A DNA stretch of 64,000 bases from a virus (taxonomy: Duplodnaviria > Caudoviricetes): IMG/VR virus record IMGVR_UViG_3300036766_002286. One strand, 5' to 3'. Every line of letters begins with the position of its first letter. Position 1 is the stretch's first letter. Shown here piece by piece: positions 5,521 to 59,243 of this stretch. The notes under the pieces are model-generated. The model saw only the letters and a list, made by a program, of their open reading frames with translations. It was not told the DNA's origin and did no database searches. Both the position numbers and the translations under genes were made by a program.

Positions 5521-5700
5521 AAACATAGAAAAACGTTCCCCTGATTAGGCTGTATTTTTTATGTTCTTTTCGATGAGGCACCTATTATCTGATGTCTTAT
5601 CTAGCCCGTCTGTATTTGGGCGTATTGGTATTATCGCAGCAAATGATCGGCGACCGAGAGCGCGGTACGCTTTCGGGTCGGTTGCCCATTTCTGGGTAAA
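5510..5700 (-). ncRNA. Candidate omegaRNA scaffold overlapping tnpB 3' end (boundaries approximate)
   Basis: DNA conservation with copy 2 continues past the stop to the element end. Both copies have a GCCC-N10-GGGC hairpin. The position is typical for TnpB guide RNAs. Confidence 0.5.
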
Positions 5701-7161: not shown

Positions 7162-7275
7162 ACTAATACTATGCCTATTTAGATAGTTTATGCAACTATC
7201 TAAAGCAACATAGTTCCGTAAAACTAGGAACTAGTACGGAACACCTTAGACTATATGCTATAGTATATTTAAATC

Positions 7276-36062: not shown

Positions 36063-37235
36063 TTAAGACTCTAGCGGCAAGCTGTCTACCAGTACTCCTA
36101 AAATCTCACGTGCAATTCCACAAGCATAGCGATCTGTCATAGAGTCCACATAACGCACTGCAAGAAAAGCCGGATCCTCTAATTCGTCCGGTGTACTAAT
36201 ATTATAAGTTCCGCTGCTTGTCGGCTTTTGATCTAGTATAAACTTTGTATTTTCTATATAATAGTCAACCAAGCTTGTTAGTGTTCCTATAGCTCTTTTT
36301 GCCTGCTGTAGAGATGCCTCTCTTAGATATATATTTTCAAAATTGTATGTACGAAACAAATTTAATATGTCAGCTGCTTCTTTATCCATACTTATAAAAC
36401 CGTTCTTACGTGTAGATTCTAATAGTCTTTTCATGAAAAAATCTAATTGTGTTTTTTGAGTGACGCCGGTGGCCGCAGAGATAGCCGCAGGCAAGTCATC
36501 CACTGTGATAACGTTTGTACGTACCGCATCGTCCCAGTCATGACAAACATATGATATACGGTCACTCCATGCTACTAACACACCCTCAGGAGTCGCTGGA
36601 CACGGTCTTTTCCATGAATGATTACGTACTCCATCAAGTGTTTGTGTACATAAGTTTAAAGATCTAAGTACTACGCCTGCTCCCCACACAGCATGATCAA
36701 ACCCGCCTTTAATGTACGGCGCAAAGGCCTCCTCTGCTGGATGTCCAAAAGGCCCATGTCCGCAGTCGTGGCTTAATGCTATAGCTTCACATAATGATCT
36801 ATTTAATCCTAACATAGAGGCCATATGTTTTGCTAAATGCGAAACTTCTAATACGTGGGTAAGTCGTGTGCGTATCATGTCGTTTCTGGGGGCAATAAAA
36901 ACCTGACATTTTCCCGCCATTCTTCGAAACACCGAGGACGCTTGTATCTTTTCTACGTCTTTTTCAAAACATAGAAAAAAATCGTCCGGAGTCTCGCTCG
37001 AAAGTCTATCTCCAGTAATACTAGACATTGTAGCCCCCAAGGCTAAAGTCTGGGTTTTTGCAGCACACCTTTGTTCTTGGGTAGCTCTATACGGCTCAAT
37101 TCGTAATTTCTGTGCTCCCTCATGGGACACCGCAGCCCCCTCTGTCATTACGCCAACAGAGGTGAGTGTAGAAATCACTGTTTCATGAAAATTGTCTAGA
37201 TCATCCATTTCATATAATATTGTGCCGAGGTACAC
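36063..37235 (-). CDS. dgt: dGTP triphosphohydrolase-like HD protein
   Basis: FRRMAGKCQVF, RTRLTH, HDCGHGPFGH, DRISYVCHD and MTDRYA motifs; start uncertain. Confidence 0.9.
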   Translation of the reverse strand: MYLGTILYEMDDLDNFHETVISTLTSVGVMTEGAAVSHEGAQKLRIEPYRATQEQRCAAKTQTLALGATMSSITGDRLSSETPDDFFLCFEKDVEKIQASSVFRRMAGKCQVFIAPRNDMIRTRLTHVLEVSHLAKHMASMLGLNRSLCEAIALSHDCGHGPFGHPAEEAFAPYIKGGFDHAVWGAGVVLRSLNLCTQTLDGVRNHSWKRPCPATPEGVLVAWSDRISYVCHDWDDAVRTNVITVDDLPAAISAATGVTQKTQLDFFMKRLLESTRKNGFISMDKEAADILNLFRTYNFENIYLREASLQQAKRAIGTLTSLVDYYIENTKFILDQKPTSSGTYNISTPDELEDPAFLAVRYVDSMTDRYACGIAREILGVLVDSLPLES

Positions 37236-37292
37236 AATTAAGTCATATATGTTTTTATTTTACTATATTCAGACTTTATATATGAACAGTAA

Positions 37293-38936
37293 CTAAAAAC
37301 ATAGATCAACGTACCCTTTTAAGGCGGCGTTGTTTATGCTAATTTTGATGAGGCACTCATTGTCTGGAGTCTCACCTAGCCCGTCTGCATTTGGGCGTGT
37401 GGGTGTTATCGCAGCAAATACACGGCGATCGAGAGCGCGTAGCGTCTTCGGGTCAGTTCCCCATCTCTGGGTAAACTGTTCGTCAATAACTTGCAGGACT
37501 CGGGATTTACCGAACCGCAAACTCACACTCGGACGCGTTCGTCGTGACTTCACTGTGCGAGCAGCTTCGATATCGGCGTGCCCTTTTCGTCCACAAAATT
37601 TGCAACGAAAATCTTCTTTAACTCTATTTCGGTCATCTACGAAACCACAACCGACACATTCCTGTGACGAATATGGTGCGGGGACAACCACAACCTCAAG
37701 ACCTACGTCTTGACTAAGGTCTTGAAGTTTTTGTTTCACCTGGCTGCGACCAGTACGGCTAATGATTCTGTTCAAACGTTTTGAGAGTCCGCCGTGACGA
37801 AAATCTAGTTCCTCGACAACAAGCATGCTCGGATCATAGAGGTCTACGATACGGTTCAAAGTCCGGTTGATCTCATTTTTCGCATACGCCCTGATCCGTG
37901 ACTGCATTGCTCGGTAGCGGTGTGAATTGCTAGGTTTAATTCCTTGACGCTGTAAGGCAGCAGTCAAGGCTGTGAGTTCACTATCAATGTTCAAAAGCCA
38001 GGTATAAAACGACTGTCCCATAAGATCGCCTTCGGAGGCGGCAAACAAGGTTTTCATGCCCCAATCAAGTCCTACTACTCCACCAGTAGGTATTGGGCGG
38101 GTTTCGGGGGTAACATCTTTCACCATACGGATGATCACAGGCCCAGTTTTAGGGACCGTGATTTGAGTCGCGTTAGTCCACACCCCGGTGCGTGCCTGTT
38201 CGTGAAATGTGGAACGTACCGGTAAGAGTATTGGTTTACCTTTAGTTAAAGTAGAGAACAGGAGCCAGTAGTCAAACCTATCAGCAGATTTGGATGCTTC
38301 CCATTGGCATACGATCCCGTCAAGTTTCATGGTGCGCGAATGCCGTAAGTTCGGGAGCCTCACTCGATGTTTACGGACGTGTTTCACAATTGAGCGCAAC
38401 AACTTCATGTCCTTGACACTAACCACATCAAACCTATCAGCAACTTTCACATACTTTCCTGTAGTCTCGTTGAGAACCGAACTTGGCACAAGGTAAGTAC
38501 CGTCAGATTCTGTGTGATACCAATGCTGAGCAGCATTCACATAGAGCAGCCGGCTTTTATCTTGGTGAGACAAGTGTGTAAGACTTTTGATAATCTTACG
38601 CACCTCAACACCAACAAGAGCAGCCCAGGAAGACAATGTTTCGCAGGCTTGATTATTCGCACTGCGTTTGTAACGTTCCGATAGGGTGGTTTCCAGAAGT
38701 TTTGGATTAGCACAGTTATATATCTTCTCCCCTGATAATACTCGTTGATACTGCATCGCGCAAGCCTTGACAAGTAGCGGCACATAAGCATGATAGACAG
38801 CACGAACTTGTTCCTCTTTACCGGCATTCATCGCGTGCACCATCTCAAAAGTACGTAAGACCCGGCCTTTAGGTTTTGCTTTACGAGACGGCTTCTTAGC
38901 CACAGCTACGGTCACGGACGCTACATTGACGGTCAT
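37293..38936 (-). CDS. tnpB: RNA-guided endonuclease TnpB-family protein (547 aa)
   Basis: Same RuvC and Zn-ribbon motifs as copy 1; clearly paralogous. Confidence 0.92.
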   Translation of the reverse strand: MTVNVASVTVAVAKKPSRKAKPKGRVLRTFEMVHAMNAGKEEQVRAVYHAYVPLLVKACAMQYQRVLSGEKIYNCANPKLLETTLSERYKRSANNQACETLSSWAALVGVEVRKIIKSLTHLSHQDKSRLLYVNAAQHWYHTESDGTYLVPSSVLNETTGKYVKVADRFDVVSVKDMKLLRSIVKHVRKHRVRLPNLRHSRTMKLDGIVCQWEASKSADRFDYWLLFSTLTKGKPILLPVRSTFHEQARTGVWTNATQITVPKTGPVIIRMVKDVTPETRPIPTGGVVGLDWGMKTLFAASEGDLMGQSFYTWLLNIDSELTALTAALQRQGIKPSNSHRYRAMQSRIRAYAKNEINRTLNRIVDLYDPSMLVVEELDFRHGGLSKRLNRIISRTGRSQVKQKLQDLSQDVGLEVVVVPAPYSSQECVGCGFVDDRNRVKEDFRCKFCGRKGHADIEAARTVKSRRTRPSVSLRFGKSRVLQVIDEQFTQRWGTDPKTLRALDRRVFAAITPTRPNADGLGETPDNECLIKISINNAALKGYVDLCF

Positions 38937-39031
38937 GGAGTGACCGGTAAAGCATTCACGAAAGTTTGTGCATAGACACCTGCGGAACGACAGTCGACTC
39001 GAACCGAAACCGGGTACTCGAACAACTTCAT
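38933..39031 (-). pseudogene. Remnant of IS607-type TnpA N-terminal HTH
   Basis: MKLFEY...RSAGVYAQT.FVNALPVTP* resembles the MKLxExAxxxGVxxxTAxxWFxxGxLPV start of IS607 serine recombinases. ATGA overlap with tnpB. Confidence 0.6.
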
Positions 39032-39093
39032 ACCTATACTATGCCTTACCTAGTAGATTATGCAACTATATAACACAATAAAGTTCCATAAAA

Positions 39094-39846
39094 CTAGGAA
39101 CTAGTACTAACACTTCCATCAGGCATAGTAGCACCTCTTAACTTGGCGTCTTTTAAGTTTGCTACACCCATATTAGCCTTATACAAGTTAGCCCCCTCCA
39201 GATTAGCTCCATGGAACTCGTTCTTATACAAAAGCGAAACAAAGTAAGCACCCTCGAGGTTAGCGCCACGCATGTCTGCGTCATTAAAATTAGCTCCGTG
39301 TATCTGGCTTCTTCGTAGATCAACACAGCCAAGGTCTGTGTTCTTAAAGTCAACATTAAACATATGGGTATCTATCATATTTGCTCCAAACATATCTGCA
39401 CCCTTAAAATAACAATTCTGCATAGATGCCCCTTGTAAATCCATCCGTCTCATTTTTGCATCTATAAAAGCACAAGTTTTTAATGTTGCTATTCTTGTCT
39501 TGCTTCCTCCTAAGACGGCGTCTGTCAAATCTGCGTTTTCAAATGACATATCTATCATAGTTACTTGTGTTAAATTAGCACCTCTGAGGTCTGCTTCTAT
39601 TAAACGCCCGTTGCCCAGTTGTGCCCCAGCAAGGTTAGCGTGTTGTAAATTCACTTTTGATAGTATAAAGTATTCTAGTCTAATTCTGGTCAAATCTTCT
39701 CCACTCAGGTCAATCTCTCACACATCACGCGTTATTTTCATATTCAAAAGTTCTGGTTTCAAAGCTTTTAATAACTGTCCTTATATATGTTGACGCCAGT
39801 CAGCAAGCTTTTCTAATAGTAGTTCTCGATTACATTTTTCCAACAT
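39094..39846 (-). pseudogene. Pentapeptide repeat protein, disrupted
   Basis: ATG at 39846 is in frame, with internal TAA (39781-39783) and TGA (39718-39720). The native tail HI* is displaced to 37276-37284 by the IS. Confidence 0.8.
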
Positions 39847-39886: not shown

Positions 39887-40348
39887 GTGTATACTCTAAA
39901 AGGAGCATTCATGGACGTAAATGATTTTATACAGCAGGAGTGCATTATGCAGCAAGCAGACACTCCAGAAGACTTTTGCCGTATGCGTGAGCTATACACT
40001 CTTGTACAGACCTATTCACCTATTCAAATATTAGAAAATCTTATTGAACTGGGAAATATTTTAGATCCCACAATCACTTCTTTTCGTGTGTTCCAAGCTT
40101 CATTTTCAAGTGGTCGTACTGCAATCGCTCCTGAGAATATTAGCCGCCAAATAACTTTGCTCAGTGAGCATATAAATGGTCTTACTATTCCGATAGCAGC
40201 TGACGCGGCTTTGTATATTTACCATCGTTTCGAAGATATACACCCGCTTCGCGACGGCAACGGCAGAATAGGTGCGGTTTTATATAATGCACTTTGCGGA
40301 ACTCTAAGTGATCCTACTTTTCCAGCAGAATCTATATACTGGCAATAA
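39887..40348 (+). CDS. Fic/Doc family protein
   Basis: HPLRDGNGRIG motif; likely start at ATG 39911 after AAGGAG. Confidence 0.88.
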   Translation: MYTLKGAFMDVNDFIQQECIMQQADTPEDFCRMRELYTLVQTYSPIQILENLIELGNILDPTITSFRVFQASFSSGRTAIAPENISRQITLLSEHINGLTIPIAADAALYIYHRFEDIHPLRDGNGRIGAVLYNALCGTLSDPTFPAESIYWQ

Positions 40349-47357: not shown

Positions 47358-47908
47358 CTATACGATATTTTTCAATAGATGTCTACCAAGCGTCCCGTCC
47401 GGCATTATTGTGTCTTCTAAATTTGCTTCCATTATATTTGCAGAATAAGGTTTGCTTTTAAAAATATGGCATCCCAAAGCTGAGCGCCTTTCAAGTTTGC
47501 GCCTATTAGATTAGCCCCCACGAAATTGGCATCCGGGCAAAAAGCGTTTTCAAGGTTCACATAAGATAAATCGGCGCCTTCCAAATCAGCATTAAGGAGT
47601 CTCACCCCGATCATATTAGTTGCACTCAGATCTGCTCCGTGTAAATTAGTCCTTTCCAGCAAAGACATACATAGGTTAGCACCTTTTAACCTGCTGAAAG
47701 ATAAATTCGCGTTTCTAATAGCACAATAAGACAAGTTTGCGTAAGTAAAGTCAGTGTCTGAGAGGTTCGCGCCATACAAGTTACAGCGGGAAAAATCACT
47801 TCCAGCCAAGTCCACACCAGTAAGACAAACTCTGCCATTTTGTATAGTTTGGGCGAGCGTCATAACTTCCCCATCTCTAGTTACATATTCGATAGCTGAT
47901 TTAGTCAT
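47358..47908 (-). pseudogene. Pentapeptide repeat protein (array #21), frameshift near 47448
   Basis: N-cap EYVTRDG; the tail ANIMEANLEDTIMPDGTLGR lies in another frame, stop at 47358-47360. Confidence 0.85.
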
Positions 47909-47921
47909 TTTACTCTTGATT

Positions 47922-48539
47922 TCATGGTAAGTTATAATAGTTTAATAATCTTGTTTGCACCAAACCATCTGGCATTATTACAATTTCTAAGTTAGCTTCT
48001 TCAATGTTTGTATTTCGAAGGTTCGCTTTGAAAAATGTCACCAGCTTAAAACTAGCATACTTGAAGTTAGCTCCTCTAAAGTCTACTCCCCCAAATAAAG
48101 CTCCCTCACAGGTAACATTTTCCAGATTCACTCCTACCATCGTAGCTCCATCTAAATTGGTACTATCAAGATTTGCATTAGTCAAATTCGCACCCGTCAA
48201 GTCCGATCCGCGCATGTCAGCACAACTAAGGTTTGTGCCAGTTAAGTTCGCATCTAAGAAAGTAGCACCTCTTACGCTAGCATGTCTTAAACTAGCATAA
48301 CTAAGGTCTGCTCTATTTAATGTAGCCCCTGTTAAATTAGCATATCTTAAAAGAGCTTGATTAAGATTCGCCTCGGATAGCTTGCTATTTGCCAGATTAA
48401 CGTTGAATAGGTCAGCATTACTAAAATCAGCTCCGACTAGGTCCATATCAGCTAAACATATATTATCATCAAAGGTGTGGCGTTCTAGTACTATTATTTC
48501 CCCATCTCTGCTCAAGTATCGAACGTCTGGATTTTTCAT
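47922..48539 (-). CDS. Pentapeptide repeat protein (array #20)
   Basis: RYLSRDG ... MPDG. Confidence 0.95.
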   Translation of the reverse strand: MKNPDVRYLSRDGEIIVLERHTFDDNICLADMDLVGADFSNADLFNVNLANSKLSEANLNQALLRYANLTGATLNRADLSYASLRHASVRGATFLDANLTGTNLSCADMRGSDLTGANLTNANLDSTNLDGATMVGVNLENVTCEGALFGGVDFRGANFKYASFKLVTFFKANLRNTNIEEANLEIVIMPDGLVQTRLLNYYNLP

Positions 48540-48544
48540 TTTAT

Positions 48545-49084
48545 TTAACTGTGATTTGTCCCAGTCGGCATACTAGCACCTTCAAGTATTACGCCACGCA
48601 GGTCTGTCTGAAAAAGGTTCGCCTTAAATAATGTCGCCCAAGTCAGATTAGCATTTTGAAGAGTAGCTCCCTTAAGATCCGCCCCCACAAATTTTGTCAT
48701 CCAGCACCCAGCCCCAGTCAAATTAGCGCCTCTAAGATTCGCACCTTCAAAATTAGCGTTGTGAAGCACCGCATATTTCAAGCTAGTCGAAGTTAGGTCA
48801 GCATTTTTAAGGTCGGCTCCGTATAAATCAGCAAAATCAAGATTTGCATCAGTTAAGTTACTGTTGGTGAGCTTACTAAATTTCAAATTAACTTTACTAA
48901 AGTTAGCCCCGGTCAGATCCGACCCTTGCAAATAAGCCCCATCTAGGTTGATGTTTCTAAAATCCGCACCTTTCAGATCCATATAAGGCATACACACGTC
49001 ATCAGGGTATGGATATGATGAACCACAGAGTACTAGTTTTACTTTTAGACCGTCTCTGCTCAAATATTCATCTTTGTTTTTCAT
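48545..49084 (-). CDS. Pentapeptide repeat protein (array #19)
   Basis: EYLSRDG ... MPTG. Confidence 0.95.
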   Translation of the reverse strand: MKNKDEYLSRDGLKVKLVLCGSSYPYPDDVCMPYMDLKGADFRNINLDGAYLQGSDLTGANFSKVNLKFSKLTNSNLTDANLDFADLYGADLKNADLTSTSLKYAVLHNANFEGANLRGANLTGAGCWMTKFVGADLKGATLQNANLTWATLFKANLFQTDLRGVILEGASMPTGTNHS

Positions 49085-49130
49085 TCCACTCCCTCCTAAT
49101 ACTATTACCGCTTTTACATGTTTTAGTATA

Positions 49131-49664
49131 TTATATATGTACAGTTCCGTCTGGCATTATGCATCCCATCATTCGAGCGCCTGTAAAATCAGTTCCAATA
49201 ATATTGGCTCCACGCAAGTCAGCATATTCTAGGTTCACGTCGCGCAACGTTGCTTTAAATAAATTTGCTTTGTGAAACTCTGCTTTGTATAAATTTGCGC
49301 CACGCAGCGTTGCGTGTCTTAGGTCACAACCAGTCCAGTTGCTATGGTCACATGCAGCTTTCTCTAAGTTCGCGTAGCTCAAGTTTGCTCCCTCTAAGCA
49401 GGAACGTGCAAGCCGTGCTTCTTTCAAAGTTCCTTCAGTTAAATTGGCAGATGTTAAATTAGCACGCGCTAGCTTGGCCCCATTGAAATTAGTTTTCCTA
49501 GGGTCTCTGTCTACAAGACAAATATTATACACGTCTGTAAAACTTAAATTAGCCCCTGCTAGATCTACCCCCACTAAATGCGCACAGACTCCTCTTTCAT
49601 CTAGCTCTGAGCTTATTATTTTCCCAGTTGCGCTCGCAAACTCTGATCTAAGTTCTCTAGGCAT
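49131..49664 (-). CDS. Pentapeptide repeat protein (array #18)
   Basis: Start MPREL overlaps the upstream gene end; ends MPDGTVHI. Confidence 0.95.
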   Translation of the reverse strand: MPRELRSEFASATGKIISSELDERGVCAHLVGVDLAGANLSFTDVYNICLVDRDPRKTNFNGAKLARANLTSANLTEGTLKEARLARSCLEGANLSYANLEKAACDHSNWTGCDLRHATLRGANLYKAEFHKANLFKATLRDVNLEYADLRGANIIGTDFTGARMMGCIMPDGTVHI

Positions 49665-50196
49665 GTATAACACCATCTGGCATTATACATCCCGCCATAT
49701 AAGCACCCTTAAAGTCAGTTTCGATAATGTTGGCTCCAATCAAATTAGCCTTCTCTATGCTAGCGTACCTTAAGGTTGCTTTAAACAGATTTGCTTTAAC
49801 CAGGCTTGCCCCCTGAAGATGTGCATTTTTAAAGTTTGTATAACTCAAGTCAGCTCCTCTGAAATTACTATCATAGCACCAAGCGTACTCTAAATTTGCA
49901 CGAGCAAAATTTGCACCCTCTAAATTAGCATGTGCTATATTTGTACACCACAAATCAGCTCCCCGTAAGTCAGCATTACTTAAATTGGCATGGGGAAGAT
50001 AAGCATTTTTAAAGTTCGCATCGCAAAGGTTGCTGTGCGACAGGTCTGCTACCATCAAGTAACAATCAGTAAAATCACAACCACTCAGATCCATGTTCGC
50101 AAGTCCATGGCACACCCCAAATTCATTCACCTCTAAGCTAATCACTATACCTTCTCTGGTTGTGTACTGCGTTCTTAGTTTTTGAGATTTAGTCAT
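49657..50196 (-). CDS. Pentapeptide repeat protein (array #17)
   Basis: QYTTREG ... MPDGVIHA. Confidence 0.95.
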   Translation of the reverse strand: MTKSQKLRTQYTTREGIVISLEVNEFGVCHGLANMDLSGCDFTDCYLMVADLSHSNLCDANFKNAYLPHANLSNADLRGADLWCTNIAHANLEGANFARANLEYAWCYDSNFRGADLSYTNFKNAHLQGASLVKANLFKATLRYASIEKANLIGANIIETDFKGAYMAGCIMPDGVIHA

Positions 50197-50704
50197 GTAT
50201 GCTCCCGTCTGGCATTATGCATCCCCGCAAGTCAGCATCCATGAAATCAGCTCCAATAATATTTGCACCCGTCAAATCACTTCCCCGCATATCAGCATAT
50301 ACAAAACTACACTTAAATAAGTTTGCTTTACGAAAGTCTGTATTAGAAATAAGTGCCCAAGTAAAGCTCGCATATTTTAAGTCTGCTCCTCGAAAATTAG
50401 TATGTGAGCACCAAGCCTTATCTAAGGCTGCATAAGCTAAAGTCGCACCCTCTAAATTAGCCCCAAGAAGATGTGCGTGCGTCAAGTTGCATTTAGTCAA
50501 ATCTGCGCCAACCATAATAGTGTGGTTAAGAGACGCCTGGGATAGACCACTAGCTGTTAAGTCTGCTCCTGTTAGATTTATATAATCGAAATTTGTTCCC
50601 ACTAAATCCTTGTTCGCTAATCCTATGCAGATTCCGGCCTCATTACGATCTAGAGCAACCCTGGCCCCGGCACGAGTAGTATATTCCGCCCCCATGTTAG
50701 CCAT
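50189..50704 (-). CDS. Pentapeptide repeat protein (array #16)
   Basis: EYTTRAG ... MPDGSIHD. Confidence 0.95.
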   Translation of the reverse strand: MANMGAEYTTRAGARVALDRNEAGICIGLANKDLVGTNFDYINLTGADLTASGLSQASLNHTIMVGADLTKCNLTHAHLLGANLEGATLAYAALDKAWCSHTNFRGADLKYASFTWALISNTDFRKANLFKCSFVYADMRGSDLTGANIIGADFMDADLRGCIMPDGSIHD

Positions 50705-51155
50705 GTATGCTCCCGTCTGGCATTATACATCCATGCATTACTGTCTCATCAAAAATGCAGTTTATAATGTTTGCACCAGTTAAAACAGCCAAACTAAGAT
50801 CTGTTCTGCACATAGTTACTCCCAGCAGGTTTGCTTTCGTAAATATAGCCCCTCTACATGAAGCGTAGCTTAAATCACATCCAGCCATGTTAGCGCCAGA
50901 AAAATTCGCTCCCACCAAACTAGCCCTTTTTAAGCTCGTGTTACACATTTCTGCACCCTCAAAATTGGCATACGGCATCTTAATGTCCGCCAGCATCATA
51001 TTAGACAAGTTCACACCACGCACATTAATGTCACTCGATAAACCCACTTCAGCCCCAGACAACACCCGCACACCCTCTCTGCCTGCAACTGCGTAAGCTA
51101 AGACTTCCTCACGGGTAAACAAAATCGTATGGCGGCCAATTTTATATTTGCTCAA
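50697..51155 (-). CDS. Pentapeptide repeat protein (array #15)
   Basis: FTREEVL ... MPDGSIHG; TTG start with AAGGAG RBS. Confidence 0.93.
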   Translation of the reverse strand: MSKYKIGRHTILFTREEVLAYAVAGREGVRVLSGAEVGLSSDINVRGVNLSNMMLADIKMPYANFEGAEMCNTSLKRASLVGANFSGANMAGCDLSYASCRGAIFTKANLLGVTMCRTDLSLAVLTGANIINCIFDETVMHGCIMPDGSIHG

Positions 51156-51186
51156 TTTGCTCTCCTTTTAGACTCACTACTCATCT

Positions 51187-51203
51187 ATACTATTGCCGGC
51201 TAA
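51187..51203 (-). promoter_or_regulatory. Conserved internal promoter-like motif TTA(G/A)CC(G/C)GCAATAGTAT
   Basis: Also at 51995-52011 and 53073-53089 (partial at 49099-49111), each in an intergenic gap of the array. Confidence 0.65.
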
Positions 51204-51252
51204 CCTGCAAGACAAAGCATCTTACGCAACTGCAACACGCTCCACCACCAGC

Positions 51253-51963
51253 TTATTTATGTAAGCTCCCATCTGGCATGGTAGCACCACTAAGGTCAGC
51301 ATTTTTTAACTGTGATTTTCTTATCTCAGCCGAAGTCAAGTTTGCTCCTCTAAATACTACGTCTTCAAAAATTGCATTATGAAAATCAGCGTATTCTAGA
51401 TTAGCGTTGCTCATGTTTGTTCTAGTTAACCTACTATCCCGGAAACTGACACCAGACATGTAAGCACCTCGCACGTCTGCATCAGTTAAATTACAATTAT
51501 CTAAAGTGGAGCCCTCTAGATCCGTTATATACTTTTTTCCATCACCCGCCATATTGGCATTGGTCAAGTTAGCGCCCGTAAGGTTTGTATTTATAAGCGT
51601 AGCCCTGGTCAAATTGACGTTAATCAGGCTTGCATTTTCTAAATATGCTCCGTCTAAATCACAACCACTTAAAACACAATTGTCTAGTAATGCACCAGAC
51701 AAATTAGCATAATATAAACGTGCTTGTGTCAGATCACAGTTTGATAGATTAGCACCCCCCAACTTTGTCTCAACCAGATTGGCTTGCGACAGATTTGAGC
51801 CTAAAAAATTTACTCCTTGTAATTTCATTTCGCTCAAATCCATACCACTTAAACTCATACCAGCTGTGATCATATCCAGCACATCAGTACGGCTAGGCTG
51901 TTTTGCCTCGAAGCTCTTATTTTTGTCCAAAATTTCTTCCCGATTAAGTTTCCTATATATCAC
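51253..51963 (-). CDS. Pentapeptide repeat protein (array #14)
   Basis: LNREEIL / SRTDVL ... MPDGSLHK. Confidence 0.95.
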   Translation of the reverse strand: MIYRKLNREEILDKNKSFEAKQPSRTDVLDMITAGMSLSGMDLSEMKLQGVNFLGSNLSQANLVETKLGGANLSNCDLTQARLYYANLSGALLDNCVLSGCDLDGAYLENASLINVNLTRATLINTNLTGANLTNANMAGDGKKYITDLEGSTLDNCNLTDADVRGAYMSGVSFRDSRLTRTNMSNANLEYADFHNAIFEDVVFRGANLTSAEIRKSQLKNADLSGATMPDGSLHK

Positions 51964-52059
51964 TATGCTCTCCTTTTAATCCCTCTAGTTACATATACTA
52001 TTGCGGGCTAATCTACAAGAGAAACTGTTTTATATAGTAATAAATCATAGACCATCGTC

Positions 52060-52578
52060 TTACCTACAGATACTCCCATCTGGCATGGTGCATCCTCTCA
52101 AAAGAAAAGCCACAGTTAGGTCAGCACCTACAATATTAGCGCCGATCATGCTACTGTATTTCAAATCAGCTTTAGTTAGATTTGCACCATTTAGGTTTGC
52201 TTTATTGAAATTTGCTTTGTAAAAACTCGCTTTAGATAAATTGGCTCTCCTGAGGTCAGCTCCTTGAAAGTTGCAAGCTACACACCAAGCATCCTCTAAA
52301 TTTGCAGCACTTAAATCCGCTCCCTCAAAATTAGCATTCGCAAGGTCGGTGTACATTAAATTAGCACCAATTAAAGTAGCACCATGCAGGTCAGCCTGAT
52401 TCAAATTAGCATAGGTAAAATTAGCCCCCGTCAGGCCAGAGTGCGATAAATCTGCTCCAAATAAGGCTGTTTCACTAAAGTCGCAGCCCACTAAATCCAT
52501 GTTTGCTAACAATATATGACCTGATGTTTTATCTTTATATAAGTCAACTAAAACACCATCTCTGGTTTTATACTGCAT
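52060..52578 (-). CDS. Pentapeptide repeat protein (array #13)
   Basis: QYKTRDG ... MPDGSICR; start 52578 or 52602. Confidence 0.95.
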   Translation of the reverse strand: MQYKTRDGVLVDLYKDKTSGHILLANMDLVGCDFSETALFGADLSHSGLTGANFTYANLNQADLHGATLIGANLMYTDLANANFEGADLSAANLEDAWCVACNFQGADLRRANLSKASFYKANFNKANLNGANLTKADLKYSSMIGANIVGADLTVAFLLRGCTMPDGSICR

Positions 52579-52594
52579 CCCAGCCCCACCTCCT

Positions 52595-53035
52595 CTACGC
52601 ATATTTGCGCACCATTGTTTCTATCCACGCCCTCTGTTCCTGAATTCCCCCATTCGGCATTATACACCCAAGCGCCTCAACTCCATCAAAATTACAATCT
52701 ATTACATTGGCTCTAAAAAAGTTTGCCTTCACTATATTCGCACCTTCAAAACTACACCTGAATAAGTTAGCTTTTTCAAACTCAGTCCCACAGCATCGTG
52801 AATAACTACAATCAGCAGAGCGCAAGTCAACCCCACTCAAATCGCTTCCGTTTAGTCTAGCTCCCTTTAAGTTAGCAAAACTTAAATTAGCCCCCGTAAA
52901 ATCGCAATAAGACATTTTAACATTTTCTAAATTACAATAAGATAAGTCTATCCCACGCACGTTTATCCCCATAAGGTCGCCCGCATCATCGACTATAAAC
53001 GACAAAATTTCTTCTCTACTGTATTTTCGAAACAC
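52595..53035 (-). CDS. Pentapeptide repeat protein (array #12)
   Basis: YSREEIL ... MPNG. Confidence 0.93.
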   Translation of the reverse strand: MFRKYSREEILSFIVDDAGDLMGINVRGIDLSYCNLENVKMSYCDFTGANLSFANLKGARLNGSDLSGVDLRSADCSYSRCCGTEFEKANLFRCSFEGANIVKANFFRANVIDCNFDGVEALGCIMPNGGIQEQRAWIETMVRKYA

Positions 53036-53118
53036 TATTCACCTCCAGGTCTCCCACTCGTCTATATCGAATATACTATTGCGGGTTAATTAAAACTAGT
53101 AGCTTATATCCAGCTATT

Positions 53119-53910
53119 TTACTCGAATTTACTTCCATCAGGCATAATCGCGCCCGCCACCTCAGCGAATTCGAAGTCACAATCGGTCATTATCGCACCT
53201 GTAAAATCAGCGTCTCTTAAGTCCGTCCGTCGAAAATCTATCTTGTCCAGATTAGCATAAATAAAGTTTGCCTTCACAAGTCTTGCATTATTGAATCTTG
53301 CCGAAGTAATCGTGGATTTAGTAAAACTACAATACTCGCACCTACCCCCAGCAAAAGTTACCTCTAACATGCGCGCGCCATCAAGTTGCCCATAAGACAC
53401 GTCTGCTTGCATTAAATTACTTCTAATAAGTTCCGCACCCCGTAAATCAGCCTTATGTAAAACTGCTGCCACAAAACTACAATCTATAATAGTTATTTTG
53501 GATAAGTCAGCTTCCGACAGCACGCTACCTGTAAAGTCTGTCTTGTTAAGATTTGCTTTACTAAATTTTGTTTTAACAAGGTTTGCATTACTGAATCTTG
53601 TTTCAGCTAGAGTAGTTCCTGTAAAATTAGCACTATGACCCTTAGTCGAATCAAAACTTGCACCCCGCAGGTCCGCTCCTTCAAAATTAGCACTAGATAA
53701 AATTAATTCTTTCAAATTTACACAACTAAGATTAGCCGACCTAAAATTAACACCAGTAAAGTTAACTTTATTTTCACTTAAAGCAACCCCACGGAAGTCG
53801 CAATGAGACAAGTCAAGATTAGCAGCACTGAATCCCCACACACCACAAGATAAAAAAGCAAAACCCCCATGTCTGTCAATATATTTTATATCAGTTCTCG
53901 TAGCTTTCAT
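53119..53910 (-). CDS. Pentapeptide repeat protein (array #11)
   Basis: KYIDRHG ... MPDGSKFE. Confidence 0.95.
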   Translation of the reverse strand: MKATRTDIKYIDRHGGFAFLSCGVWGFSAANLDLSHCDFRGVALSENKVNFTGVNFRSANLSCVNLKELILSSANFEGADLRGASFDSTKGHSANFTGTTLAETRFSNANLVKTKFSKANLNKTDFTGSVLSEADLSKITIIDCSFVAAVLHKADLRGAELIRSNLMQADVSYGQLDGARMLEVTFAGGRCEYCSFTKSTITSARFNNARLVKANFIYANLDKIDFRRTDLRDADFTGAIMTDCDFEFAEVAGAIMPDGSKFE

Positions 53911-53911
53911 G

Positions 53912-54415
53912 TTAGTTCCCCTGATCAAAATAATAAAAAGGATAGACAGTGCCGTCGGGCATAATAGCACCTCTCATATGGCAATTAATAAAGGTGGTGC
54001 CAAGAATGTTTGCGCCTTTCAAATTGGCATACTCCAAGACCGCAGAACCAGCCAAAGTAGCACCATATAAATTCACTTTAAATAGGTTTGCCCGTCTAAA
54101 ACTTACGGTATCAAGCACAGCGAAAGCAAGGTTAGCTCCTTGAAGTACTATATCTTCGCAACGCACCCTCTCAAGGGTTGCGCCTGTCAAATCCGCACCC
54201 TCTAAATCAGCTCTGTACATGGCAGCCCCGACCAACTTAGCCCCGTGTAGATTGGCGCCCTGTAGTTTTAGATAGCTAAGGTTAGTAAAACTTAAATCAG
54301 CATAGCTGAGGTCACAATCACGCAGGTCTTTACCTAGCCAAGGTCCACCCCACGGCAGTTCACATGAAGTACCTTCTCGGTCAATATATTTTATGTTTCC
54401 TCTTATATATTTCAT
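53912..54415 (-). CDS. Pentapeptide repeat protein (array #10)
   Basis: KYIDREG ... MPDGTVY. Confidence 0.95.
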   Translation of the reverse strand: MKYIRGNIKYIDREGTSCELPWGGPWLGKDLRDCDLSYADLSFTNLSYLKLQGANLHGAKLVGAAMYRADLEGADLTGATLERVRCEDIVLQGANLAFAVLDTVSFRRANLFKVNLYGATLAGSAVLEYANLKGANILGTTFINCHMRGAIMPDGTVYPFYYFDQGN

Positions 54416-54473
54416 GTTCTCTCCCTTATATTATTCTCCATTTTCACAGTTGTGTAATGCAGTCATTATAATT

Positions 54474-54971
54474 CTATTTATGTACGCTACCATCCGGCAT
54501 AACCATATCTGCCATGTTTGCCCTTGTAAAATCAGCGCCCATAATATTTGCACCCAGCATTGATGCTTCCCGCAAGTCAGCTCCTATAAAACTAGCTTTG
54601 AATAAGTTTGCTTTGGTTAAATCTGCAGCATATAAAGTTGCACCCAAAAAGTTACAATAACTAAGGTCCGCTCCTTCAAATATTGTGCGTTTGCACCCAG
54701 CATGGCTGAAGTCAGCCCCATGACAGTTTGCCCCGACTAGAATCGCACCCTTGAGATTGGCACGAGCAAAACAGCCATCTATAAGACAAGATCCTGTCAA
54801 ATCAACTTTCAGCATGACGGCGCGAGAAAAGTTAGCCCCGCGCAACGCGCAACGACTTAGGTCAGAAAAAGGAAGATTACACTCAGTAAGATTAATATTT
54901 TCTAAGTTTTCATCCATTCTTACATATGCAGGCTTCATATTTTTATCATAATAGAAAACGTCTGATTTCAC
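54474..54971 (-). CDS. Pentapeptide repeat protein (array #9)
   Basis: FYYDKN ... MPDGSVHK. Confidence 0.95.
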   Translation of the reverse strand: MKSDVFYYDKNMKPAYVRMDENLENINLTECNLPFSDLSRCALRGANFSRAVMLKVDLTGSCLIDGCFARANLKGAILVGANCHGADFSHAGCKRTIFEGADLSYCNFLGATLYAADLTKANLFKASFIGADLREASMLGANIMGADFTRANMADMVMPDGSVHK

Positions 54972-55019
54972 TGGGTTTTCTCCAGTAATTTATCATCATT
55001 CAATGCAATCTCTAAAATA

Positions 55020-55439
55020 TTACACATGCTTACTCCCGTCCACCATGATAGCACCTCTAAGTTCAATAGCGCGCTCGAAATCACAGTTTACTACATTAGC
55101 GCCAGTTAAGTCGGCATTCTGAAAATACGCCCCGCCTACTTCTGTTTCAAGCATATTAGCACCCTTTAGATTAGCGCTGCTCAAGTTACTGCTAGTAAAG
55201 TTTGTTTTAAATAAATTTGCTTTTTCAAATATTCCACCATTAAGATATCCACCTGTAAAATCGGCACTAGTCAGGTCTGCTCCACTAAAGTTTGTAAACA
55301 TACAACTTGCAAAAATAAAGCCAGCACCGCACAACACCGCCCCCCGCATGCTACAATAGGAGAAATCAACTCCTGCAAAGCCAGTATTCGCTAAAACACC
55401 CGGGTTTCCTTCCCTCTCAATATAGTTGATATTTTTCAT
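55020..55439 (-). CDS. Pentapeptide repeat protein (array #8)
   Basis: NYIEREG ... MVDGSKHV. Confidence 0.93.
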   Translation of the reverse strand: MKNINYIEREGNPGVLANTGFAGVDFSYCSMRGAVLCGAGFIFASCMFTNFSGADLTSADFTGGYLNGGIFEKANLFKTNFTSSNLSSANLKGANMLETEVGGAYFQNADLTGANVVNCDFERAIELRGAIMVDGSKHV

Positions 55440-55999
55440 AAGGTTTTGTCGCCGCGCTGAAACACACTATAACGGCTAAAGAAATCAAAAGTATAAATAC
55501 TGCCATCCGGCATTGTTGCTCTTTCCAAGCTAGCGCCTGTAAAATCAGCGCACCCGATGTTCGCGCCCTCTAAATTAGCACGGCTTAGATCCGCGCAACG
55601 TAGATCTGTTTTATAAAGGTTTGCTTTAAAAAAGTTTACATTATATAAGTGTGCATTTTCAAATATAGCACCCTCAAGATTTGCTCCTTCAAAGCTAGCG
55701 CTTCCACACACAGCCCCACTGAGGTTTGCGCCCCGCAAGTTCACGCCGCACAAATCAGCACCGGTCAGGTCTGTTTCCCTTAAGTTAGCAGCGCTAAGAT
55801 TTGCACCCCGAAGTATACTTCTAAACATGTTTGCTTTACAAAAATTTACTTCACTTAAATCAGCCCTGGTCAGCTCAGCTCCTTGAAAATCAGCACCCCG
55901 CAGATCTTCGTCCGACCGGGCTCGTCCCCACACCAGTTCCCGCAAAACACCCTCACGGTCTATATATTTGACATTAGTTTGCATTGCTGTGCTCTCCAA
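55436..55999 (-). CDS. Pentapeptide repeat protein (array #7)
   Basis: KYIDREG ... MPDGSIY. Confidence 0.95.
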   Translation of the reverse strand: MESTAMQTNVKYIDREGVLRELVWGRARSDEDLRGADFQGAELTRADLSEVNFCKANMFRSILRGANLSAANLRETDLTGADLCGVNLRGANLSGAVCGSASFEGANLEGAIFENAHLYNVNFFKANLYKTDLRCADLSRANLEGANIGCADFTGASLERATMPDGSIYTFDFFSRYSVFQRGDKTL

Positions 56000-56001
56000 A
56001 C

Positions 56002-56511
56002 CTACTCATGTCTGCTCCCATCTGGCATTATAGCTCCCAAAAGGTTGCAACCAGTAAAGTTTGTGCCCGCTATATCTGCACCAAAAAAACTAGCTCCCGT
56101 ACAATTGGCATTTGTAAAATCGCTACCCTTAAGGTTAGCCTTCGTAAAGACACAATTTTCTAAATTTGCCTTAAACAAGTTAGCCCCTTGTAAATGAGCG
56201 CCCAATAAGCTTGCATCAAACATAGACACCCCACTAAGATCACAGTGAGCAAGATTTGCCTTATCAAGCAATATGAAAGGCATGTCGGCCCCATGAAAGT
56301 TAGCTCCGACCAAATTAGCTCCTTCAAGATTAGCATTCTCTAAATTAGCACAGGTGAAGTTAGCACCTCTAAGGTCTCTTCCATTAAGAGTCACACTAAA
56401 TAAGTAAGCCCAAGATAAATCAATTCCAACAAGGTTAGTACCCTTTTTTACCATAACAGTTTTCCCTGCCTTATCAAGATATATAAAATCATACTTTGCC
56501 CCATTATACAT
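56002..56511 (-). CDS. Pentapeptide repeat protein (array #6)
   Basis: IYLDKAG ... MPDGSRHE. Confidence 0.95.
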   Translation of the reverse strand: MYNGAKYDFIYLDKAGKTVMVKKGTNLVGIDLSWAYLFSVTLNGRDLRGANFTCANLENANLEGANLVGANFHGADMPFILLDKANLAHCDLSGVSMFDASLLGAHLQGANLFKANLENCVFTKANLKGSDFTNANCTGASFFGADIAGTNFTGCNLLGAIMPDGSRHE

Positions 56512-57178
56512 GTATACTCCCGTTTGGCATGATGGTTTCAGTTAGAATTGCATCATGTAGCCTCGAGATTTTCAAGCTCGCACCGAAAAGATTTGCATGA
56601 GAAAAATTTGTGCAAGTAAAAGTCCCTTTAGTCAAGTTAGCTTTCTCCAAGTCAGCATTCGAGAAATCAGCATTTGTTGAATCAGCGCCCTCTAAATCAG
56701 CTCCCCGCATGTCTGCAAAACTAAAATCTGCTTCAGCTAAGACTGCCTCGCACAAGAATGTTCGATGCTTATCATCCGCACCACACATAATAGCATTGCT
56801 AAAACAGGCCTGGTATAAATAAGCCTTACTAAAACTTGCTTTAGTTAAATTAGCATAAGTGAAACTACAACCGATGGCTTGTACTTTATATAAGACAGCT
56901 CCAGCTAAGTGAGCATTCGAGAAATTAGCAGACATTAGATTTGTCTCAGAAAGATTGGCTTTAGTTAGATCACAGTTTGACATATCAGCATTTTTACAAT
57001 TAGCACCCGCCAAGTCCGCTCCCGCCAAAGATAAACCTTTAAAATCTATGTCATGTAAATCAAGATCCCATAATACAGCATCTGCCAAGCTTTCTTTGTT
57101 TTCTATAGCATCAAGCACTTCAGATCTAGTAAATATCCGATCGTCAGGATGTCTAAAGTCGTAGCTACCTTCAGGCAT
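56504..57178 (-). CDS. Pentapeptide repeat protein (array #5)
   Basis: FTRSEVL ... MPNGSIHV. Confidence 0.95.
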   Translation of the reverse strand: MPEGSYDFRHPDDRIFTRSEVLDAIENKESLADAVLWDLDLHDIDFKGLSLAGADLAGANCKNADMSNCDLTKANLSETNLMSANFSNAHLAGAVLYKVQAIGCSFTYANLTKASFSKAYLYQACFSNAIMCGADDKHRTFLCEAVLAEADFSFADMRGADLEGADSTNADFSNADLEKANLTKGTFTCTNFSHANLFGASLKISRLHDAILTETIMPNGSIHV

Positions 57179-57671
57179 GTATACTCCCATCTGGCATAAC
57201 TGCACCCCTAAGGTTAGTATTAGTAAAGTTACAACCCTCTATATATGCACCAAAAAAATTAGCATACCTACAATCGGCAGATGAAAAATCAGCGCCCTTA
57301 AGGTTAGCCTCCGTAAAATCAGCCTCGTCCGCACGTACGCCTCTTAACGTAGCTCCTTGTAAATTAGCGCCCCGCAAATCTGCTCGCTGCATATCAGCAT
57401 CCGTTAGATCACAATTATGTAGATCTGCTCTATTAAATGAAGTGTCCATCAAGACAGCCGCAATCATACTTGATCCACTAAGGTCAGCGCCGCTCAGGTC
57501 AGCGGCTATAAAGTCAGCACGCGCCAAACGGGCGCCCATAATATCTCTTCCACTGAGATCACAACCAGATAACTCACAACCAGATAAATCAATTCCCACC
57601 AAACTAACACCCTTTTTTAAAACAGCAGCCTTATCATTACTATCAATATAGTCAATATCTTGATTTTTCAT
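57171..57671 (-). CDS. Pentapeptide repeat protein (array #4)
   Basis: DYIDSND ... MPDGSIHA. Confidence 0.95.
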   Translation of the reverse strand: MKNQDIDYIDSNDKAAVLKKGVSLVGIDLSGCELSGCDLSGRDIMGARLARADFIAADLSGADLSGSSMIAAVLMDTSFNRADLHNCDLTDADMQRADLRGANLQGATLRGVRADEADFTEANLKGADFSSADCRYANFFGAYIEGCNFTNTNLRGAVMPDGSIHA

Positions 57672-57841
57672 ATTAGGTAAACACTCCCATCTAGCATAAT
57701 AGCGTCTTTAAGGTTTCTTCCCTCGAAGTTTACTTCAGTAAAACTAGTATAAGATAAATCAATTCCCTCAAGACTTTCGTTTTTTCTCAAAACATGTGGG
57801 TTATCATCCTCATCAGTATATTCAATATCATGATCATTCAT
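57668..57841 (-). CDS. Minimal pentapeptide repeat protein (array #3, 57 aa)
   Basis: EYTDEDD N-cap, ~5 pentapeptides, MLDGSVY; coupled to both neighbours. Confidence 0.75.
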   Translation of the reverse strand: MNDHDIEYTDEDDNPHVLRKNESLEGIDLSYTSFTEVNFEGRNLKDAIMLDGSVYLI

Positions 57842-58607
57842 AGATACTCCCATCGGGCATAGTAGCCCCACTCAAGTTAGCACCCTTAAATACTATACCC
57901 GCAAATTGGTCCATACTTAAACTAACTCCCCTAAAAACCCCGCCAATTAAATTAGCATAGCTAGAATGACACTTGGTTAAATTTGCCCCTCTTAGCTTTG
58001 CACCCTCAAACCTGGTATTTGCAAGGTCTGTTTTAGATAGGTTCGCTTCGCATAAAGTAGCATACTTAAAATTTGCATTGCTTAAATTACAGTCTTCTAG
58101 GTCCGCTAGAGTTAGGTTCGCGCGGGTGAAATCAGCCCCTGCTAGGTGTCTTTCTCGTATATCTGCCCTTGTTAAATTGGCATCGCGAAAATTAGTGTAA
58201 GTAAATATCTTCTTCCAACTCGCGTCGTTTTTGTCCCCAATCATAATTGCACCAACTAAGATAGCTTTTTGGAAATTGGCATCTCTGATGTCTGTTTTAG
58301 TCATATTGGCTTCAAAAAAATTAGCATTTTTTGCAACGCATTCTCGCATATTAGCTCCAGCTAAACTACAATTAGACATGTTAGCCGAATCGAGACTAGC
58401 TCTTAGTAGCTGCGCACGAGTCAAGTCACACCTAACCAGATTAGCATTTTGTAGTTGAGTTGCCCCCAACATAGCCCCGGACAGGCTAATCCCAGAAAAA
58501 TCAATACCATTTAAATCAAGTCCCGTCAAATTACAATCCGCCAAAGTACCTCTGTTAGCTATAATTTCTAAAACCTGTTCACGAGATAAGCTCTTGCCGT
58601 TTTTCAT
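57834..58607 (-). CDS. Pentapeptide repeat protein (array #2)
   Basis: LSREQVL ... MPDGSIYE. Confidence 0.95.
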   Translation of the reverse strand: MKNGKSLSREQVLEIIANRGTLADCNLTGLDLNGIDFSGISLSGAMLGATQLQNANLVRCDLTRAQLLRASLDSANMSNCSLAGANMRECVAKNANFFEANMTKTDIRDANFQKAILVGAIMIGDKNDASWKKIFTYTNFRDANLTRADIRERHLAGADFTRANLTLADLEDCNLSNANFKYATLCEANLSKTDLANTRFEGAKLRGANLTKCHSSYANLIGGVFRGVSLSMDQFAGIVFKGANLSGATMPDGSIYE

Positions 58608-58743
58608 ATAAATATTCTCCCTTTAGTGTTTGTAAAGCCCAGTTTAACTAAATTTACCATATGAACACTTGCTGCTAGCACGTGATAAACAATCATTATT
58701 AGTATGTTTTTATGATTTAAGACCATACAATGCTCAAAGCGAA

Positions 58744-59243
58744 CTATTTATGAATACTCCCATCTGGCATAATAGCGCCAAAAAGTTTACAACCAGTAAA
58801 GTCGCATCCCTCTATATCTGCTCCTTTAAAATTAGCACCACACAAGTCAGCACCTGTGAAATCAACTTTTTTAAGATTGGCACCAGTTAAGTCAACATAA
58901 TCTAGAATTGCATAAACTAATTTCGCACTATACATACTAGCCCCAATCAAAGTAGTCCCGTACAGCTCAGCTTCAGTTAAATTTGCGTAATTAAGGTTTG
59001 CTTTATTTAAGGTTACTTGCGACAGGTTTGTTTTAATCATGGTAGCAAAAGTTAAATCAGCACCTTCAAGGTCTGTGTGTGCTAAGTCACTCGCATCAAA
59101 GTTACAACCTCTAAGATCTCTACCCACAAGCTTTGCATTGTGTATCAGACAATACGATAAATCAATTCCTACAAGATTAGCATCCCCCGCAAAATAGCAA
59201 ACTTTCCATCTATATCCATATACTTAACATCAAATTTTGTCAT
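58744..59243 (-). pseudogene. Pentapeptide repeat protein (array #1), frameshift in a G5 run near 59185
   Basis: AAGGAGG RBS plus MTKFDVKYMDIDG in one frame; DANLVGIDLSY...MPDGSIHK in another. Confidence 0.85.

Follow-up and report, generated by a model that had tools for sequence, protein, structure and literature searches.

IS607, IS1535 and ISC1926, the founding members of the IS607 family, encode a serine recombinase whose N-terminal domain binds DNA, carry short subterminal repeats and recombine through the exchange of an identical 2 bp (PMC6188088; PMC4058570). A 2026 review describes insertion by the family as strictly at GG, and most substitutions in the core of CboIStron abolish transposition (PMC13565253, PMC13521648). 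In CboIStron the transposon-adjacent motif (TAM) is TGGG and the right end TCGG, with a GG core that the guide follows directly; TnpA is strict for GG at TGGG, TnpB requires TGGG, the RNA scaffold ends in ..UCGG, and the base preceding the core discriminates self from the empty site (bioRxiv 10.1101/2023.11.20.567912). The scaffold of ISXfa1 includes the core nucleotide (PMC10711439), and the RAGATH-18-associated TnpBs of IS607 elements such as ISFba1 have motifs of AGGAG or GAGGG, a size of ~387 aa and a described Rfam RNA family (PMC11061315). Here we compare with these systems two TnpB-encoding elements, copy 1 and copy 2, found in a stretch of 64,000 nucleotides from a virus of the Caudoviricetes (IMG/VR record IMGVR_UViG_3300036766_002286), the whole of which we call the window.

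The explanation that we hold to be probable is that both copies are non-autonomous IS607 elements, whose ancestors were inserted by TnpA through a core held in common with a GTGT target and which TnpB, by analogy with characterised systems, would restore by homing. The boundaries of copy 2 are defined by the gene into which it was inserted, those of both copies by comparison with relatives, and the family assignment by the recombinase genes that the relatives retain.

Element boundaries and the interrupted genes

Copy 2 extends on the minus strand from 39109 to 37286, and consists, in this order, of a left end (LE), a remnant of tnpA, tnpB, a predicted omega-RNA scaffold and a right end. GTGT stands immediately outside the left end, at 39113-39110. 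The right end terminates in ACTGT, with TAGTTACTGT as the final letters at 37286, after which the flank continues with TCATATATAA. The features of this locus are as follows (asterisks in protein sequences mark stop codons).

39094-39693, minus strand: pentapeptide-repeat gene, 199 aa (Pfam PF00805); its present tail is MPDGSVSTSS*, the final codons coming from the element
39110-39113, minus strand: GTGT, the predicted TAM, whose last bases, TGT, are the core in common with the right end
39032-39109, minus strand: left end of copy 2, non-coding, with the motif ACTAGTTCC and several TAGT repeats
39014-39031, minus strand: remnant of tnpA (serine recombinase), of which the first six codons remain (MKLFEY), the sequence after them being out of frame
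37293-38936, minus strand: tnpB, 547 aa (Pfam PF07282); the D-E-D triad of RuvC is intact, and there is a zinc finger of the form CxxC...CxxC
37286-37500, minus strand: predicted omega-RNA scaffold, overlapping the 3' end of tnpB and terminating in ...ACUGU at 37286
37276-37285, minus strand: T CAT ATA TAA, the end of the pentapeptide-repeat gene orphaned by the insertion, which gives ...SVHI* when the element is removed
37266-37285, minus strand: predicted guide and target, the 20 nt adjoining the right end, beginning TCATATATAAAGTCTG

The initial annotation had placed the junctions of copy 2 at ATGCCTGATGGAAG-TGTT-AGTACTAG on the left and GTTAC-TGTT-CATATATAA on the right, and both were found on the minus strand, the former starting at 39126 and the latter at 37293-37276. 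The junctions that it gave for copy 1, AAGG-TGT (7247-7241) and GAC-TGT (5517-5510), are likewise present, both left flanks end in GTGT, and both predicted guide strings directly follow ACTGT in the window. The two junctions of a copy share only the 3-nt core, which in copy 2 is by chance extended to 4 nt, and the target site is not duplicated.

The gene interrupted by copy 2 allows its boundaries to be tested by removing the element. On the minus strand this gene reads ...ATG CCT GAT GGA AGT GTT and then passes into foreign DNA, while the 14 other pentapeptide-repeat genes of the window all end in M[PV][DN]G followed by four residues and a stop, with Ser at the first of these four positions in 12 of the 14 and His at the third in 11. 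When nine excision models were translated, only retention of a single GTGT produced a four-residue tail with His at position 3 and a stop (MPDGSVHI*); dropping the GTGT too gives MPDGIIYKV*, and retaining extra bases loses the frame. The chance of finding His and a stop at the correct codons in a random flank is ~1.5e-3. The earlier expectation that excision would restore MPDGSVHI* is thus borne out, in that the left flank, one GTGT and the right flank together encode a tail of the paralogue type; the paralogue tail used for comparison, MPDGTVHI*, lies at 49157-49131. Among relatives of the pentapeptide-repeat gene no empty site was found, there being no orthologue and a best match of 35-37% identity. 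Only one run, a sediment metagenome that is probably the source sample, was found to contain the stretch; none of its contigs joins across the element as an empty-site allele would, a result that is uninformative because contigs drop rare variants.

The paralogues are tightly clustered: at least 14 pentapeptide-repeat genes lie on the minus strand at 47400-59100, and almost all of them end in MPDGS[IV]Hx*. The strictly kept four-residue tail suggests a functional C-terminal motif in these proteins.

Copy 1 is inserted antisense to uvrC, at its extreme end.

5510-7240, minus strand: copy 1, 1731 bp, with tnpB at 5545-7161 (538 aa)
7241-7244, minus strand: GTGT adjoining the left end of copy 1, part of the flank
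5490-5509, minus strand: predicted guide and target of copy 1, beginning GAAATTTCTTATATATGC
3673-5520, plus strand: uvrC (Pfam UvrC domains), its last codons being ..FH followed by SH*, the latter from the right end of copy 1 on the opposite strand

The element follows the conserved ..FH of UvrC, and the tails of UvrC relatives read ..(K/R)FH followed by 0-15 residues. As tails are this variable past ..FH, neither the present KKFHSH* nor the KKFHTLDYML* predicted on excision is preferable, and the site of copy 1 is neutral for the excision model. The nearest UvrC among 5.8 billion clusters has 69% identity, from which it follows that the host organism is without a close sequenced relative.

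The two copies can be aligned from GTACTAG on the left to exactly after ACTGT on the right, as found in pairwise alignments, with 76-87% DNA identity over the stretches compared and 81% protein identity. In copy 1 the start codons of tnpA (MKLSD...) are fused in frame to tnpB.

TnpB and the predicted omega-RNA

The TnpB of copy 2, a putatively active nuclease, has PF07282 (the Cas12f1-like TNB domain) as its sole Pfam match. Residues D291, E375 and D455, together with the four cysteines of the zinc finger, are invariant across 12 homologues, and a profile of the protein matches TnpB and Cas12f chains of the PDB over the RuvC and zinc-finger part; no model matched the N-terminal ~280 residues. 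The protein family is rare, with 34 matches among the 5.8 billion clusters. The window TnpBs are ~540 aa long and have RuvC-I at residue 291, as compared with ~190 in a TnpB of ISDra2 size. The tnpB open reading frame (ORF) of copy 2 runs to 7 nt from the right end, which adds ...LKGYVDLCF (37293-37330), an extension also found in P0002, a third copy on the same 616-kb contig as the window; that of copy 1 ends earlier, 34 nt before the right end.

Comparison of copy 1, copy 2 and a related locus, L001, gives a synonymous divergence (dS) of ~0.9-1.1 and a ratio of non-synonymous to synonymous divergence (dN/dS) of 0.12-0.14, which indicates that TnpB is under purifying selection. Conservation extends to the RNA. 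In an alignment of seven elements, the last ~215 nt up to ACTGT adopt a consensus fold of 28 pairs, 93% of them paired, with 10 compensatory pairs as against 1-5 when the partners are slid by 1-3 columns. This conserved 3' fold is consistent with an omega-RNA scaffold; in Rfam the predicted scaffold has no match at the gathering threshold or at E <= 1.

These observations bear on the possibility that the copies are immobile, domesticated TnpB genes with a host function, their ends being relics without a current role in transposition or homing. Such a history would agree with the lack of tnpA in the window, and with copies that are old relative to each other (dS ~0.9) yet maintained by purifying selection. 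We nevertheless regard it as unlikely. The RuvC triad is intact, unlike that of nuclease-dead TldR-type derivatives, and the ends and the RNA scaffold are kept to the last base in at least seven genomic contexts. Moreover, the orphaned 9-nt gene tail beside copy 2 is undecayed, which suggests that the insertion of copy 2 is much younger than the split between copy 1 and copy 2.

Junctions in relatives, a co-varying core and IS607 descent

Relatives were collected from scans of genome and metagenome collections as 160 loci, mostly with 30-39% TnpB identity. The ACTGT right end is kept to the last base in seven elements (copy 1, copy 2, L001, L082, L162, L163 and L164), among which homology stops right after ACTGT, at 37286 in copy 2, the following base being T or G. 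On the left, homology starts 1-2 nt past GTGT, and GTGT itself is found at all 11 independent left junctions of the subtype. These are the junctions of copy 1, copy 2, L001, L162 and L163, of an additional copy in the source metagenome, and of L006, L007, L033, L174 and L177, which are autonomous or truncated relatives of the Mycobacterium type. The contig of the metagenome copy agrees with the window as far as the first G of GTGT (39113) and diverges from it over the next 255 letters. One of the Mycobacterium-type loci, L177 (375-1667, Mycobacterium sp. SM1), has a left fragment of the L007 type (with GTGT) and a right fragment (..AACTGT) ~1 kb apart with unrelated DNA between them, and may be an internally replaced derivative or one resembling a miniature inverted-repeat transposable element (MITE). 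The further copies could have contradicted the junctions originally proposed by differing from them; instead, every definable copy has TGT at both junctions, GTGT on the left and ACTGT on the right.

The invariance of GTGT at the 11 left junctions is also what would be expected if GTGT were the element's own first four bases rather than part of the target, the rebuilt pentapeptide tail then being a coincidence. We consider this very unlikely, since removal of GTGT with the element gives a tail unlike those of all 14 paralogues, and its retention gives MPDGSVHI*. Position -5 varies among G, A, C and T at the left junctions, and in characterised IS607 elements the motif is derived from the target and has its core in common with the right end. 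It is the base after GTGT, constant within the subgroup, that belongs to the element.

Many of the 160 relative loci have an ORF of ~195 aa on the same strand, ending just before tnpB. All eight of those tested, each beside a relative of 30-39% identity, carry the Resolvase catalytic domain PF00239. A closer relative, L164, with a TnpB 60% identical, retains residues 94-187 of the recombinase at 60-64% identity. Its recombinase gene (2323-2897) is cut upstream by a fragment of an ISL3-family transposase (PF01610), leaving the C-terminal half. The TnpA of eight relatives starts with (M/V)KLSEYA or a close variant, and directly past the left end of the window copies stands ATGAAGTTGT(T/C)CGA.., which encodes MKLFEY in copy 2 and MKLSD in copy 1. 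Because the start codons of tnpA are kept here and the recombinase is kept in relatives, the window elements can be read as internal-deletion derivatives of an autonomous IS607-type element. The left ends tell of the same relationship: the LE of copy 2 is homologous to those of copy 1, L001, L162 and L163, and its motif ACTAGTTCC is also found in the autonomous Mycobacterium-type elements L006 and L007. TAGT occurs ~5 times in the 80-nt left end (39032-39109) and once near the right end, and autonomous relatives have it too (L006 3310-3370); these are candidate subterminal recombinase-binding repeats, as in IS1535. The assignment to IS607 made in the initial annotation therefore gains support from the serine recombinase directly upstream in relatives and from its first codons in the window copies. 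Judged from their sequences, both window copies belong to IS607 as non-autonomous elements of a subgroup with a non-GG core: the serine recombinase gene is present in relatives and absent as such from the window copies, the junctions are GTGT and ACTGT in place of the GG of characterised members, and TGT is common to both ends and the target, as expected of an identical crossover dinucleotide.

In other relatives the core differs, and it differs at both junctions at once. GTCT on the left is accompanied by ...ACTCT on the right at five independent sites of a gut-metagenome element and in L140, L145, L126, L134 and others, and GTAT on the left by ...ACTAT on the right in L146, L150, L157, L034, L037, L094, L099 and L101. 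Among the 26 loci with a recognisable left-end motif, the matching ACT-N-T was found within 270 nt after tnpB in 22; for letters that do not match, the count was 12 of 78 (Fisher p = 2.3e-10). There are four exceptions: the loci L019 and L146, which are cut short, L089, whose right end has one change (GCTCT), and L110. On the TnpB tree the core label requires at least five changes, with one A/C switch inside a clade of 97/97 support, and the GG-type L047 and L048, which have GGGG at the left and ..GCGG at the right, stand apart as a distant, long-branched outgroup. Such coupling, in which one position has to agree between the two junctions and is substituted at both in concert, is expected from the 2-bp overlap of serine recombinases.

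It is hence the least likely explanation of all that the copies are of the IS200/IS605 type, inserted as single-stranded DNA 3' of GTGT(T) by a Y1 (HUH) transposase, with no shared core and with the right-hand TGT a mere resemblance to the target, for although TnpB-only elements are common in IS605 and that model predicts an identical empty site, motif and guide, such that the junction sequences alone fit both, the upstream ORFs tested in relatives are serine recombinases and not Y1 transposases, the start codons of such a recombinase are kept in the window copies, and strict co-variation of position -2 at both junctions is a prediction of a double-strand crossover core.

Under the IS607 explanation, the ancestor of each copy would have been inserted by a TnpA serine recombinase, through recombination of the core of the circular element (...AC-TGT-T...) with the same core in a GTGT target. 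This would leave one core per junction without target-site duplication, and copy 2 would in this way have entered the last four codons of the pentapeptide-repeat gene. Recombination between the two cores of copy 2 would produce ...GGAAGTGT joined to TCATATATAA, encoding MPDGSVHI*, and TnpA may still mobilise the copies today. By analogy with characterised IS607 and IS605 elements, the TnpB RNA is predicted to end in ...ACUGU plus ~16-20 nt of right flank, with the guide starting at 37285 in copy 2 or 5509 in copy 1. TnpB would then cut the empty joint (GTGT or GTNT plus a matching target), and the element would be copied back by repair. The occupied site would be spared, since it has CTGT, with C replacing G at position -4. 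It is the layout of CboIStron and ISXfa1, mapped onto the window elements, that gives the GTGT motif, the ..ACUGU scaffold end and the self-protecting C at -4. Within the window, the guide string of copy 2 has a single occurrence, at its own site with CTGT in front, and that of copy 1 is likewise found only at its own site, again preceded by CTGT.

A number of points weigh against this account or blunt its details. There is no resolvase or recombinase match anywhere in the 64-kb window. The rebuilt tail depends on 9-10 nt of right flank only. The window copies are ~20% apart in DNA, with a dS of ~0.9, so that neither is a recent duplicate of the other. L018 combines GTCC on the left (3180-3200) with a right end in ..ACTCT, the only non-GTCT case of its type; this may fit a core at positions -3/-2, or may reflect a later point mutation. 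Two of the initial proposals stand in part. The GT/TGT core is right in that every complete copy has TGT at its two junctions; within it, either TG or GT may be the crossover dinucleotide, which sequence cannot separate. An argument from palindromic states was rejected, as each option includes one (TA or AT) and there is no discrimination between them. The proposed GTGT TAM agrees with the left flanks, GTGT at 11 of 11; the nuclease may, however, require only GTNT or less, the N at -2 being fixed by recombination.

A wider hypothesis, which we advance tentatively as somewhat short of an even chance, is that these elements represent a branch of IS607 that has moved off GG and recombines at T-N-T, the middle letter having switched several times (G, C, A) and GTNT in the target matching CTNT in the element. 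Hosts of this T-N-T branch are Actinomycetota, Thiotrichaceae and the present sediment organism. On the simplest interpretation, TnpB of this branch would recognise only G at -4 and T at -3, and perhaps T at -1, with position -2 free, in which case the recombinase core could drift without breaking nuclease homing. The alternative, which would be equally new, is that TnpB reads -2 and has co-evolved at each core switch. No description of a T-N-T core in IS607 was found in the literature searched, with ISfinder entries outside the search, and this is not proof of novelty.

Several further features of copy 2 were noted. A perfect 10-nt inverted repeat (39037-39046 and 39121-39130) pairs the flank in the pentapeptide-repeat gene with the interior of the LE; as copy 1 has a weaker form at another spacing and L001 has none, it is probably due to chance. 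A 15-nt complementarity between 37276-37290, comprising the right end and guide, and 37475-37489 is confined to copy 2 and was also judged to be chance. A scan of the left end for promoters and terminators gave no signal exceeding shuffles, and no inverted repeat joining both element ends was found when looked for. The neighbouring genes encode an HD-domain phosphohydrolase (dGTPase-like) and a Fic/DOC-domain protein, at 36063-37235 and 39887-40348. Elsewhere in the window, tandem repeats with a unit of ~27 nt and many ACC and ACT triplets occupy 12083-12214 and 14720-14803; they probably belong to a coding region and would encode repeats rich in Thr and Pro.

Comparison with known systems

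At the level of the locus, the result accounts for two altered gene ends, those of the pentapeptide-repeat gene and of uvrC. More broadly, the occurrence of TGT, TCT and TAT cores in one natural clade would illustrate how the match between a small serine recombinase and a guide-RNA nuclease survives changes of the core. Through its co-variation the clade provides a natural set of variants in core and motif, ready-made for tests of core reprogramming, and GTNT would add a T-rich, G-poor motif to the options for compact TnpB editors.

ISDra2 and IS608 resemble the window elements in encoding a TnpB nuclease and in having a left-flank motif, as well as an RNA that overlaps tnpB at its 3' end and takes its guide from the right flank, both of which are predicted for the window elements. 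Those elements, in contrast, use a Y1 transposase and single-stranded peel-and-paste transposition, and have no core common to the junctions. ISFba1 resembles the window elements in its IS607-linked TnpB, its guide RNA derived from the right end, as is predicted here, and its 5' motif beside the target; its motifs, its size of ~387 aa and its described Rfam family do not apply here. The statement in the initial annotation that characterised IS607 elements use GG holds for their cores, but not for TnpB motifs, as IS607 TAMs ending in AG (AGGAG) are already published (PMC11061315). As to the cores, IS607, IS1535 and ISC1926 are reported with GG ends and GG insertion sites, whereas the present clade, to which the autonomous Mycobacterium-type L006 and L007 also belong, has CTGT, CTCT or CTAT ends and GTGT, GTCT or GTAT targets.

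CboIStron and ISXfa1 differ from the window elements in their GG core, as opposed to T-N-T (TGT here), and in the size of TnpB, which is ~390-410 aa as against ~540 aa here, with RuvC-I at residue 291 and PF07282 as the only domain matched. The window elements, furthermore, have no tnpA, no group I intron and no match to an Rfam RNA family. The overall plan is nonetheless the same. In the autonomous relatives, as in CboIStron and ISXfa1, the order is serine recombinase, tnpB and 3' guide RNA, the last of these predicted in the relatives; terminal inverted repeats and target duplication are both lacking, and a short core is found at both junctions and lies within the motif of the left flank. 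As in CboIStron, a single upstream position distinguishes the right end from the motif, with TGGG and TCGG there corresponding to GTGT and CTGT here.

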